Below, in pieces: positions 23,939 through 26,037 of a stretch of DNA of 64,000 nt. Position 1 is the stretch's first letter. Every line of letters starts with the position of its first letter. Position numbers and translations under genes: made by a program. Below the pieces are notes generated by a model, which saw only the letters and a program-made list of their open reading frames with translations, did no database searches and had not been told where the DNA came from. Origin of the DNA: Escherichia phage PBM-2; the sequence record PV029541; one strand, 5' to 3'.

Positions 23939-24109
23939 ATGAACAAATTTACTATTCACTGGCTCAATGGAAAGGTTAGTTCTTTCGTGGGTGGAGAACC
24001 TGTTGAAGGGAACAAAGCATTCCACATTGATTCAGAAGGTTGCAAAATCTTAATACCATATGCTTGGTATAAAGATGGTGAAGTAAAGGCATTAAAAAAG
24101 AGTAGTTAA
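23939..24109 (+). CDS. small hypothetical protein (56 aa)
   Basis: ATG at 23939 with GAGG 8 nt upstream; below the length cutoff of the supplied ORF track. Confidence 0.35.
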   Translation: MNKFTIHWLNGKVSSFVGGEPVEGNKAFHIDSEGCKILIPYAWYKDGEVKALKKSS

Positions 24110-24789
24110 TATCGTGAAGGGTTCTGTTAGAATCCTTTGAGATAGGAACTCCTATCATAACCTTTCTTAACTTAATCTTTGCCGTATGGCACTGACGCTA
24201 GGGGTGGACCCCCATCCGTCAGACAGACTATTTTAAGAATTGGTTATCACAGCAAATGTAAAGCAACATTCGGGTTAATCAATGGCCTCTCCCTATAGGG
24301 GCCATTTCTGAATCTTAGGCTATATCCCAAAGGTTAGTATCTTTAGGATAAGGCTTCAGATCCCTTATCAAACTAACCGCTCAATGTTGAGCATTCTAAT
24401 CACATAAGCCCCTATATGGGCTGGGTTAAATGTCGGATAGCCTAGCTACCTACAACATCGAACTGTTAGATCTTACATGCAATATAGGGTATAAAGGGAG
24501 GATTCGTCCCCTCCCCCCTATTATGGGCTATCAGTGAGTGCATTAGTTGATTAGCTGTGGAAGGTAGGCCGATGTCCACAAGCGTGGCCCAGAGCTAGTG
24601 TACTCTTTGATAGTTTTCGTAAGCGATTATGCGGTTTTTTAGAAACGAACCAATAACATAAATGCAAACGATGATGTTGTTCTGATGGCAGCCTAATAAG
24701 CCAAGCGTCAGTCAGGAGTGAGTCGTCCTGATTATCAAACGACCGTGGAGTGTCCCCGTCCATGTATTAGAAACGGGGAGTTAATCAAT

Positions 24790-24867
24790 GGTATGTGATA
24801 GCTCAAATAGGTAGAGCGTGAGGCTACAGTGCTGAATGGTTTGTGGGTTCGATTCCCACCCATGCCT
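24790..24867 (+). tRNA. tRNA-like gene, isotype unassigned (possibly degenerate)
   Basis: Canonical 5' half (U8 A9, D arm GCTC-AAATAGGTA-GAGC) and T arm GTGGG-TTCGATT-CCCAC, but acceptor pairing is imperfect and the anticodon stem is weak when folded by hand. Confidence 0.35.
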
Positions 24868-24933
24868 ACAGTCCAGACGATATCTGAGTGACTATAAAAA
24901 CAGATGGAGCCAGGTGGAATCCCTGGCAATTAA

Positions 24934-25000
24934 TTCCGGTGTAGGTACTAGTGTCGTGCACGGCATGAGTGTTCTGGTTCGAGTCCAGACGCCGGAACCA
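24934..25000 (+). tRNA. tRNA-like element with encoded CCA, shortened
   Basis: T arm TCTGG-TTCGAGT-CCAGA, acceptor TCCGGTG/CGCCGGA, discriminator A then CCA; only about 63 nt between acceptor strands, so D and anticodon arms cannot both be canonical. Confidence 0.35.
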
Positions 25001-25002
25001 AT

Positions 25003-25126
25003 TATCAGTTGCACGAGATGGCTTGACATGTTCAAGTTTGGACTAAGTGTGACACCGCTAGATTGGAGGGCTGCTGCGGTAAGCTATAGACTCCAACCGG
25101 AGGTTCGAATCCTTCACTGATAACCA
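25003..25126 (+). tRNA. tRNA-like element with encoded CCA, elongated
   Basis: Perfect 7-bp acceptor pairing TATCAGT (25003-25009) / ACTGATA (25116-25122), T arm GGAGG-TTCGAAT-CCTTC, A + CCA; the 121-nt span is too long for a standard tRNA. Confidence 0.3.
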
Positions 25127-25573
25127 ATTCAAAGTAGCATTGTATATTTAAATGTTTCCCGGCATTTAAAGCACCCACCGTGACAGTGCTACTCTAAATT
25201 GGAAGAATTATGGGGGTAAGTCGTAACCATACGACGGCGTAAGTACCAGATGAGACTTCTGGACGCCCCTACCATATTTGAGGTGTAACAGTTAAATCCA
25301 GTTGCCGGAAGTGCAATTCTAGATACGCTGCCAATGTGTGAACGGTAAGGCTGTACAGGACTCGGACTCCCACCTCAAACCAAAGTCGCCAGGTACTTAT
25401 GGCAAACGGGTAGTAACGAACTAGTCATTCGTCAAACGCCCAACCCAATTATGAGTCAGCAAGAACGCCTTCACTTAAACTTAAACAAAAAAGCTTAACG
25501 CAATAATTATGTAGGGGTATGTAAGGATTGCGAAGAAGGAGCCAGTTAGAGTCTGGCATGACTCACCTATTAA

Positions 25574-25649
25574 TACCCGGTAGGCTTAGTGGTAAAGCCC
25601 CACTAGTAAACCAACTAGGACGCAGGTTCGAATCCTGTCCGGGTAACCA
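25574..25649 (+). tRNA. tRNA gene with encoded CCA, anticodon arm irregular
   Basis: Acceptor TACCCGG/CCGGGTA, D arm GGCT-TAGTGGTAA-AGCC, T arm GCAGG-TTCGAAT-CCTGT, A + CCA, 73 nt + CCA; anticodon arm pairs only as CTAG(T)/(A)CTAG, leaving a 6- or 8-nt loop. Confidence 0.5.
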
Positions 25650-25655
25650 TATTAT

Positions 25656-25729
25656 GTCCGCTTAGCTTAGACTGGGAAAGCAACCGACTAATAATCGGAA
25701 AGTCACTGGTTCAAATCCAGTAGTGGACA
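25656..25729 (+). tRNA. tRNA gene, apparent anticodon AAU (Ile-type) if the hand fold is right
   Basis: Full cloverleaf, 74 nt: acceptor GTCCGCT/AGTGGAC, D arm GCTT-AGACTGGGA-AAGC, anticodon arm ACCGA-CTAATAA-TCGGA, T arm ACTGG-TTCAAAT-CCAGT; no encoded CCA. Confidence 0.6.
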
Positions 25730-25974
25730 CCCATTTAGCAGTAACATAGTCCTGATTGCATCGCACTCTAAAGACAACACTGGTAAGACAGTCCAGTGGC
25801 TGCTATTGTATTGTTATTCCCTTCGACGGGAATTTCGCTGGAGAATAGGAACTCCTTAAATCCTAGCCTGAGTAATTACCACAGGAACGGGACTATCAAT
25901 CCCAAGCCTGGTCAGCGTGGACTGTCTTCGTGGTAAGAACCAAAAGCCTCCCAGCTATGGGTAAATAGTACTAA

Positions 25975-26008
25975 GTCCCCTGGAGCCGTCACTCTGGGGG
26001 ACTTTTTT
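25975..26008 (+). terminator. rho-independent terminator closing the tRNA cluster
   Basis: GTCCCC...GGGGGAC stem followed by TTTTTTATTT. Confidence 0.55.
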
Positions 26009-26037
26009 ATTTGAGTATTAATAATTGGATAATCAAT

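Follow-up and report, generated by a model that had tools for sequence, protein, structure and literature searches.

A tRNA cluster of an N4-like coliphage read as an array of probably selected, non-decoding tRNA-like RNAs with a tmRNA-like coding module

Introduction

What can the members of a phage transfer RNA (tRNA) cluster do when most of them keep the body of a tRNA and lack an anticodon arm with which to decode? The question arises in Escherichia phage PBM-2 (sequence record PV029541), an N4-like coliphage (Gamaleyavirus, Schitoviridae) of which a stretch of 64,000 nucleotides (nt) was analysed (hereafter the window; coordinates are those of the window, and features lie on its + strand unless stated otherwise). 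The units concerned lie in a stretch of about 1.9 kb that is poor in open reading frames (ORFs; ~24134-26012), and the GenBank annotation with which we compared them is that of Escherichia phage PBM-3 (record PV053165.1), of which the window is the reverse complement.

tRNA-like stable RNAs have been known in phage tRNA clusters for fifty years, as RNAC and RNAD of phage T4. Their roles are stated as unknown (PMC3014915, PMC9697503), and the units described here are new members of this long-known and unexplained kind, the tRNA-like stable RNAs of phages. We give a probability of roughly 0.6 to the reading that the ~1.9-kb stretch is an array of selected, non-decoding tRNA-like RNAs, released from a precursor as stable RNAs of the RNAC/RNAD type. 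That the units are selected and do not decode follows from three observations taken together: helices maintained by compensatory changes, 'anticodon' positions that are not conserved, and the behaviour of the units as cassettes.

Results and discussion

Five T arms and two tRNA genes

A first-pass annotation of the window, made from the sequence alone, had seen five T-arm/acceptor units in the cluster, and a motif count bears this out: the + strand has the T-loop motif GGTTCRANTCC at 24846, 24976, 25102, 25625 and 25708, five copies, with six matches in the whole 64-kb window against a mean of 0.22 in shuffled sequence (0 of 100 shuffles reach six). Prediction tools return two of the five. With default settings ARAGORN calls only 25574-25649 ('tRNA-???', with a two-base 'anticodon' that corresponds to a 6-nt loop) and 25655-25733 (tRNA-Ile(AAT)), and Rfam at its gathering threshold likewise finds only two tRNA genes, at 25656-25729 (61.6 bits) and 25574-25646 (40.7 bits); the tool count is thus neither five standard tRNAs nor none, the two outcomes that the first-pass annotation had set against itself. 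For the other units, named here U1, U2 and U3, and for a further module, F, no match to the Rfam tRNA family (RF00005) is listed, even at E<=10, and ARAGORN makes no default call. Sub-threshold Rfam matches to Plastid-ycf2, His_leader, YrlA, snoR113 and the Rfam family U2 were set aside as reverse-strand tRNA matches or chance.

Structurally, all five units (U1 to U5) have the 7-base-pair (bp) acceptor and a T arm with the T-loop motif, U1 with a conserved U7.C66 mismatch in its acceptor, and only in U5 does the anticodon arm combine a stem of 5 bp and a loop of 7 nt with U33 and a conserved anticodon. The count of five was itself too low, for more tRNA-sized multi-helix folds exist in the array, for example module F (25277-25382) and module G (25209-25276).

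Units without a usable anticodon arm

U1, U2, U3 and F keep the acceptor stem and the T arm, U1 also the D arm, with the anticodon half replaced or degraded. U1 (24790-24867), labelled 'tRNA-Cys(ACA)' in GenBank, consists of an acceptor of 6 bp plus the mismatch, a D arm, a T arm and a degenerate anticodon arm, and encodes no CCA; ARAGORN calls it only at 95% thresholds, again as 'tRNA-Cys(ACA)', with two G.G mismatches in the anticodon stem. Homologues with 90-91% identity are found in a Klebsiella T4-like phage, directly after tRNA-Thr, and in the jumbo phage RaK2. In these three phages (window phage, Klebsiella T4-like phage and RaK2, in this order) the acceptor reads GGUAUGU/CCAUGCC, GGUAUGU/CCAUACC and AUAAUGU/CCAUUAU and the T stem GUGGG/CCCAC, GUAGG/CCUAC and GUGAG/CUCAC, changes that are compensatory; the G.G mismatches in the anticodon stem are conserved, the loop pentamer is UACAG, CCUGG or CAAAG, and U33 is not kept. 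Further relatives of U1 were sought by a pattern scan, which mostly brought up Thr-type tRNAs that other phages carry and that are unrelated to U1.

The next two units had been described at first as having acceptor stems, T arms and an encoded A-CCA on bodies of about 63 and 121 nt; all of these elements are present, and the lengths come to 66 and 124 nt. U2 (24935-25000) has the 7-bp acceptor UCCGGUG/CGCCGGA, a T arm, A73 and an encoded CCA, with a single 5-bp hairpin in the place of the D and anticodon arms (minimum free energy (MFE) fold z -2.24). Among seven distinct sequences from N4-like phages, 100% of the alignment cells in its helices are paired and four pairs have changed on both sides, in the hairpin and in the T stem. 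U3 (25003-25126) has the 7-bp acceptor UAUCAGU/ACUGAUA, a T arm, A73, an encoded CCA and three internal helices, namely GCAC/GUGU around a 7-bp hairpin, followed by a hairpin of 6 bp whose 22-nt loop is nearly invariant. Here 99.6% of the cells are paired across eight sequences and five pairs have changed on both sides, three of them in the acceptor, whose variants are UAUCAGU/ACUGAUA, UACCAGU/ACUGGUA and UACUGGU/ACCAGUA.

Module F (25277-25382, ~105 nt), also present in phage N4, has a 9-bp acceptor-like stem, UUUGAGGUG/CACCUCAAA, followed by CCA. Its closing stem covaries among six variants (AGGUG/CACCU, GGGUG/CGCCU, AGAUG/CAUCU, GGAUG/CAUCC), and its 3' tail is not CCA in every one of them.

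U5 as the decoder and U4 as a probable non-decoder

U5 (25656-25729) was first described as a textbook tRNA with the anticodon AAU, and ARAGORN and Rfam (61.6 bits) agree: it is a canonical tRNA-Ile with A34, the sole decoder of the array, and normal. Its anticodon stem-loop, CGACU-AAU-AAUCG, differs from that of the tRNA-Ile2/Met (CAU) type at position 34 only; among the related loci nine calls read AAU against 57 that read CAU, and an AAU tRNA also occurs in the T1-like phage HC6. Apart from tRNA-Arg(ACG), bacterial tRNAs rarely have A34. It recurs in phage arrays such as this one, in Leu(AAG), Pro(AGG) and Ile(AAU) tRNAs (Bas96, locus L003, 3225-3314; phiMAM1, locus L005, 3082-3155; window 25656-25729). 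The anticodon of U5 matches the preferred Ile codon, and the codon-usage check proposed in the first-pass annotation fits it, AUU accounting for 58% of the Ile codons in + strand ORFs and for 66% in - strand ORFs. One trait listed there as non-canonical, the encoded CCA, is an ordinary feature of E. coli and of many coliphage tRNA genes, and it is the canonical tRNA-Ile that lacks it here (A-CCC).

U4 (25574-25649; 'tRNA-???' in ARAGORN, 40.7 bits in Rfam) is a tRNA body with A73 on which, as had been noted, the acceptor, D and T arms are canonical and CCA is encoded, and of the two loop sizes then considered for its anticodon arm, the arm found is that of 5 bp with a 6-nt loop, AAACCA, an arm that the Rfam tRNA model leaves unaligned. 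The loop is AAACCA in the window phage and in IME11 and AGGCAU in KP8-type phages, its length and the paired stem being kept, and the homologues in IME11 and KP8 show compensatory changes in the acceptor. A 14-mer scan for other relatives of U4 gave mostly chance matches.

Functionally, an otherwise perfect tRNA with A73-CCA such as U4 invites the idea that the units are unconventional decoders, which would use 6- or 8-nt anticodon loops or long inserts to frameshift, suppress or recode phage genes. Frameshift suppressors with an 8-nt anticodon loop are known among tRNAs, and '???' tRNAs are called in several N4-like phages. We nevertheless find this scarcely credible, since the U4 loop is unconserved (AAACCA against AGGCAU) and has no U33, the U1 loop is variable on a stem with conserved G.G mismatches, U2 has no anticodon arm at all, and the long ORFs of the window are intact under the standard code, so that no need for recoding is apparent. 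None of U1-U4 appears able to decode, whether conventionally or by frameshifting, and the proposal of 'decoding-modifying tRNAs' fails on the anticodon-loop sequences of U1 and U4, which vary between homologues.

Modules that move as cassettes

Genomically, the 2-kb region is a mosaic in which separate segments match unrelated phages (BLAST against phage genomes); in those phages the matched segments are mostly featureless DNA, and they lie beside tRNA genes in every locus examined. Across 14 N4-like loci the modules Z, A, B, C, U1, E, U2, U3, FR, G, F, H, U4, U5 and I are present, absent or reordered as blocks: KP8 has the order U4-B-C-U3-E-U2, and N4 has E-U2 and F beside ordinary tRNA-Asn, Ser, Thr and Pro genes.

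Several modules are enclosed by long 'frame' helices, in the window module B and module FR (25133-25196). A recurrent frame, CAACAGGUAAGAGCAUUG...CAGUGCUCUUUCCGUUGUG, surrounds variable inserts, some of them with T arms, in P1, HK620, T1-like phages and many prophages (P1, locus L004, 1666-1760; HK620, locus L006, 1676-1790; HC6, locus L010, 1176-1270). Such helices may be RNase III processing stalks or recombination joints. In P1, a motif CACAACAGGUAAG stands directly 3' of the CCA end of tRNA-Thr.

The ordinary tRNA genes at this locus in N4 and KP8 (tRNA-Asn, Ser, Thr, Pro and Gln) are likely ancestors of the units, and the U2 T arm, read from its sequence, resembles that of tRNA-Asn. The first-pass annotation had accordingly offered 'tRNA pseudogenes' as one reading, in which the units are functionless, drifting remnants of a larger phage tRNA set. 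We regard this as very improbable. The variable stems of U1, U2, U3, U4 and F keep their pairing through compensatory substitutions, and the uniform pattern of stem evolution in these alignments argues against decay; U2 is 100% identical between the window phage and N4 in spite of their different arrays, long unpaired segments are nearly invariant, and U1 is 90-91% identical in phages of other families. Of the readings first offered, the sole survivor is that of tRNA-derived elements, for which a regulatory role is putative.

A tmRNA-like coding module beside U1

Directly upstream of U1 lies a module (24609-24779) that resembles transfer-messenger RNA (tmRNA) and has no attached tRNA-like domain. 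In its 5' part, before the tag, a pseudoknot PK1 is formed by AGUUUUC/GAAAC and UUAUG/CAUAA; a GCA resume codon at 24664 opens the tag ANDDVVLMAA (24664-24693), which ends in the stops UAAUAA (24694-24699) within a helix-5-like hairpin, and PK2 (24712-24743) and PK3 (24745-24778) follow. The Rfam model tmRNA_permuted matches with 32.7 bits (E 3e-4), below its gathering score (47 for RF04321), over ...AUAAAU GCA AAC GAU GAU GUU GUU CUG AUG GCA GCC UAA UAA, which reads ANDDVVLMAA. The default ARAGORN search misses the module, which is called only at 85-95% thresholds. Sub-threshold tmRNA matches fall on the module in HC6, VLCpiS13a and P1 as well, and no match to a tmRNA family reaches the gathering score in the 19 loci searched.

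Compared with tmRNA (ssrA; RF00023, RF04321, RF01849-51), the module has the pre-resume pseudoknot, the upstream AUAAAU, the GCA, a 10-codon tag of the form AN[DE]..[LM].[AV]A, stops in a helix-5-like hairpin and post-tag pseudoknots; it differs in lacking the tRNA-like domain with G3:U70 and in having two downstream pseudoknots where E. coli tmRNA has three. At the nucleotide level the array resembles E. coli ssrA only in short words at the resume site and the tag end and in a generic T-arm similarity.

The tag frame, which lacks a start codon and closes with hydrophobic or Ala residues, is strictly kept. In 131 of 131 instances, collected by a pattern scan and from fetched phage loci, the tag is exactly 10 codons long, with 19 peptide variants and the consensus AN[DE][DEN]xx[LM]x[AV]A (the E. 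coli tag is ANDENYALAA), and the other two frames vary in length; ANDDVVLMAA itself is encoded by six DNA versions that differ at third positions only. An AUG-initiated ORF in the +1 frame of the tag region (MQTMMLF) was rejected as a gene, its length ranging from 4 to 12 codons and its AUG being lost in VLCpiS13a while the tag frame stays. The layout of PK1, stop-codon hairpin, PK2 and PK3 is supported by covariation: in an alignment of 26 sequences 87.6% of the cells are paired, compared with 38-46% in controls that were slid, both sides have changed in 17 of the 33 pairs, and none of 500 shuffles scores as high.

The module is widespread. It occurs in 547 phage records, among them N4-like phages, P1/P7/D6, HK620, T1-like siphoviruses and Ackermannviridae, and in 657 of 5426 complete E. 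coli genomes (~12%), where 555 places are on plasmids, mostly P1-like, and almost all listed places are featureless. At least five unrelated groups carry it (N4-like phages, P1-like phage-plasmids, P22-like, T1-like and Ackermannviridae), and it is almost never annotated as an RNA. Our literature search found no description of a tmRNA-like element in P1, N4-like, T1-like or P22-like phages, and the text of the tmRNA database supplements has no phage entries; earlier surveys report phage tmRNAs only in mycobacteriophages and Bacillus phage G. The module seems to be a cassette in its own right that does without a tRNA-like domain. As a form of tmRNA it is new, with a function that we infer.

Its surroundings in other phages bear on its expression. 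A near-consensus sigma-70 promoter, TTGACA-17-TAGATT, stands directly upstream of the module in T1-like phages (HC6, L010, 963-1000; VLCpiS13a, locus L011, 964-1000), and in Ackermannviridae a promoter TTGTCA-16-TATAGT lies ~75 nt upstream (phiMAM1, L005, ~1371-1400), so that host RNA polymerase would begin its transcripts at PK1 or slightly before it. HK620, a P22-like phage (L006, 1286-1951), has the module in the late leader, with pR'/qut on one side and the annotated tQ terminator on the other, a position from which a lysogen might make it constitutively, like lambda 6S RNA; a tRNA-like element ending CACCACA-G-CCA follows it there. An Rfam match to STnc100 (RF02076, a prophage-associated small RNA; 48.7 bits) lies ~1.1 kb downstream of the module and on the same strand in an Ackermannviridae-like contig (L123, 1118-1331, - strand), and a sub-threshold STnc100 match is found in P1 (L004, 2878-2998), downstream of tRNAs.

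In search of a tRNA-like domain

A tmRNA delivers its tag through a tRNA-like domain, and we looked for one attached to the module, in the form of 5' and 3' ends that pair as an acceptor stem with G3:U70, a T arm and CCA, and found none. One could then imagine a split form of trans-translation, in which one or more tRNA-like RNAs serve as the acceptor partner of the module and deliver ANDDVVLMAA to stalled ribosomes. The module lies directly upstream of U1, the conservation of the tag frame implies that the tag is translated, and at an 85% threshold ARAGORN assembles a 'tmRNA' (24581-24867) by joining AGCGUGG, as the 5' strand, to the T arm and 3' strand of U1. In KP8, moreover, the tRNA cluster holds, ~470 nt upstream of the tmRNA-like module, a tRNA body (locus L007, 866-940) that combines the alanine identity elements G3:U70, A73 and CCA with an anticodon loop of 6 nt.

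Comparison speaks against the idea. The assembled 'tmRNA' was rejected, U1 being self-contained: the partner with which its 3' strand covaries is the local 5' strand of U1 and not AGCGUGG, and both the Klebsiella T4-like phage and RaK2 have U1 without the module. What lies 3' of PK3 varies between phages, being U1, U3, another tRNA-like element, tRNA-Asn or a frame helix. Counted from the resume codon, a tRNA or tRNA-like body begins at +127/128 nt, ~10 nt beyond PK3, in the window phage and Bp4, where it is U1, and in a metagenomic relative (L061), where it is tRNA-Asn; in KP8, U3 follows PK3. No G3:U70 acceptor is present in the array of the window, and in a search for G3:U70/A73 acceptors near the module KP8 alone among the related loci has one, apart from chance matches in ordinary tRNA-Arg genes. 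A pairing of GGGUAYG with the 3' acceptor strand of the terminal tRNA, which would yield G3:U70, is found only in closely related T1-like loci, is absent from the window phage, and was treated as a coincidence. The promoters directly or closely upstream of PK1 in T1-like phages and Ackermannviridae leave no 5' acceptor strand to be co-transcribed, no conserved complement to the 5' end of the module was found, and a duplex prediction of the module with E. coli tmRNA, which would reveal special complementarity, was no better than shuffles. On this balance a split system is distinctly improbable, and it is unlikely that an odd tRNA-like unit is the missing tRNA-like domain.

The broader proposition that the phages run a ribosome rescue or protein tagging of their own, with the module and its degron-like tag translated on stalled ribosomes and the odd tRNA-like units as parts of the system, we also think improbable, if a little less so. 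Were the module translated, it would need a novel route of delivery, perhaps through a separate non-decoding tRNA-like RNA of the arrays or through a takeover of the host tmRNA-SmpB entry.

Release from a precursor, and a possible use

How might an array of selected, non-decoding tRNA-like RNAs work? We posit that it would be transcribed as one or a few precursors, from which the tRNA-maturation enzymes of the host would excise the tRNA-like bodies, RNase P cutting at the 5' ends and 3' trimming and CCA repair following; the long frame helices around other modules are possible RNase III sites. Excision would release stable tRNA-like RNAs of the RNAC/RNAD kind, and the same cuts would set the ends of neighbouring RNAs, notably the 3' end of the tmRNA-like RNA ~10 nt before U1. 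As for what the released RNAs do, the likeliest role, and a speculative one, would be to occupy host factors that recognise the acceptor and elbow and not the anticodon.

Four points weigh against this reading. Processing by RNase P and RNase III is deduced from shape; near-invariant long unpaired segments, such as the 22-nt loop of U3 and GAGGC...UGCUGAAUGG in U1, go unexplained if the units are processing signals only; part of the sharing between phages may reflect recent horizontal transfer and not long-term selection; and covariation in U1-U4 was judged from small sets, of 3-8 distinct sequences that are 82-99% identical, which gives modest power.

A refinement of the same reading makes the units anti-defence decoys: mimics of the tRNA body, with acceptor, elbow and CCA, that would soak up or block host effectors attacking tRNA, while the canonical phage tRNA sustains translation. 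The proposed targets are anticodon nucleases, an OLD nuclease that amputates the anticodon arm, the CCA-tail-cleaving Cas12a3, Schlafen-type nucleases and CCA-modifying toxins. There are documented defences that target tRNA and phage tRNAs that counteract such defences (PMC11464382, PMC11555353, PMC12445682, PMC12851939, PMC13056530); the units keep exactly those parts that are recognised independently of the anticodon, the anticodon loop holds at least four of the ~9 differences between the U1 of the window phage and that of the Klebsiella phage, and the cassettes are spread over unrelated phages of one host family. On the other hand, the unit loops resemble no particular host anticodon loop and differ between homologues, and the counter-defence tRNAs known so far are functional decoders, unlike the units here. 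We therefore consider decoys possible but rather unlikely.

Comparison with known systems

The closest precedent for non-decoding tRNA-like RNAs released from an array is that of T4 RNAC (species 1) and RNAD (species 2), which are ~120-140 nt long, do not decode and lie inside the T4 tRNA cluster, as the units here lie in a tRNA cluster. RNAC ends in a canonical T arm, CCGGGUUCGAAUCCCGG, which it shares with the units, and beyond matches of T-arm length blastn finds no sequence similarity between them and rnaC/rnaD. The array differs from the T4 pair in its many more modules, in the exchange of cassettes across phage families and in its tmRNA-like coding module. RNAC (L133, 1909-2047, - strand) starts with UCGAUUCGAGG, reminiscent of the GGAUUCGAC segment of the 5' tRNA-like domain of tmRNA.

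In mitochondrial tRNA punctuation and in the mascRNA of MALAT1, tRNA-shaped elements recruit RNase P and RNase Z and thereby set the ends of neighbouring RNAs. A tRNA or tRNA-like element at fixed spacing after the tmRNA-like module in several phages is suggestive of such an arrangement by analogy; the known examples are eukaryotic or organellar, and processing here is predicted only.

Partial derivatives of tmRNA also exist, namely the mycobacteriophage DS6A tmRNA, reduced to the tRNA-like domain, and plastid tmRNAs of ~65 nt without a coding sequence, and U2 matches them in size and layout (PMC4131195, PMC11915505). Those forms keep homology to the tRNA-like domain of tmRNA, whereas U2 has C3:G70 and occurs in N4, which is without the coding module. 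Defence-evading phage tRNAs (the T5 tRNA-Lys variant that counters PARIS, and retron-evading tRNAs) share with the units a tRNA shape, altered anticodon-loop regions and a home in phages of Enterobacteriaceae (PMC11464382, PMC11555353). They are decoders with 7-nt loops that replace the cleaved host tRNA, and by this analogy U5 would be the sole candidate for such a role, as U1-U4 cannot decode.

Setting and remaining modules of the array

The ORF-poor stretch is flanked on one side by the gene for a single-stranded DNA-binding protein (gp45 homologue) and gp46-like genes, and on the other by gp48 and gp49 homologues and a virion RNA polymerase of 3457 amino acids (aa), on the opposite strand. 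Directly after the last upstream ORF, a consensus scan, by pattern match only, picks out a candidate sigma-70-type promoter with a TG element, TTAATA-16-TAGAAT (24106-24133), which is a possible start of a non-coding transcription unit; N4-type middle promoters are outside the range of the tool. A strong intrinsic terminator with a 13-bp stem and a U run (25973-26012, or 25973-26004 in the narrower reading; fold z -5.4) closes the array.

From the promoter onwards, modules Z and A (24134-24522) are structured in folds and form conserved blocks in Gamaleyavirus relatives; the 3' end of A is a minihelix, AUAGGG / GGGAGG-AUUCGUCC-CCUCCC / CCCUAU (24484-24521), and the segment 24341-24522 also matches Kuravirus-like phages (BLAST). 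Module B (24536-24605), read from the sequence, is a hairpin within an 11-bp frame helix, GAGUGCAUUAG...CUAGUGUACUC; the hairpin loop may pair with a downstream segment (GGCC/GGCC), and the core of the module matches Ackermannviridae phages with 87-92% identity. Module E (24869-24933) comprises two hairpins, the second being CCAGG-UGGAAUC-CCUGG, and always precedes U2; it shares the first ~60 nt with Kuravirus-like, T1-like and Klebsiella phages.

Downstream of U3, the framed module FR (25133-25196) has the helix AGUAGCAUUG...CAGUGCUACU around two hairpins (MFE z -3.95; 0 of 200 shuffles as stable), and in Bas96 the frame holds a different insert. Module G (25209-25276), a closing stem with two hairpins (MFE z -3.16), is gained or lost as a block among relatives. 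Module H (25386-25573) includes the motif AUGUAGGGGUAUGUA (25509-25523), which T1-like phages also carry before their terminal tRNA. In the form AUGUAGGGGUAYGUA it is conserved ahead of the last tRNAs both in the window phage (25509-25523) and in T1-like phages (HC6, L010, 1427-1441). Module I (25734-25972) is the conserved, structured tail of the array, predicted by folding and kept in N4, KP8 and SP-058.

A 94-aa ORF (24836-25120, + strand) was rejected as a gene; it starts inside U1, and U1 is missing from Bas96, KP8 and N4. GenBank records of several relatives place short 'hypothetical protein' ORFs over the array, in Bas96 eight small coding sequences on both strands (L003, 1580-3076). 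Such ORFs overlap the structured RNA modules and are probably spurious.

Implications

tRNA-like stable RNAs, on this evidence, are not an oddity of T4; they form a pool of selected cassettes that N4-like phages exchange among themselves, with single cassettes also in Klebsiella T4-like, jumbo, T1-like, Kuravirus-like and Ackermannviridae phages. Genome annotation mislabels these cassettes ('tRNA-Cys', 'tRNA-OTHER', 'hypothetical protein') or skips them. If the tmRNA-like module is translated, phages would be manipulating ribosome rescue or proteolytic tagging in a way that has not been described, and if it is not, its strict 10-codon frame would need another explanation. In either case, the module and the cassettes together provide a testable handle on what the non-decoding tRNA-like RNAs of phages do.

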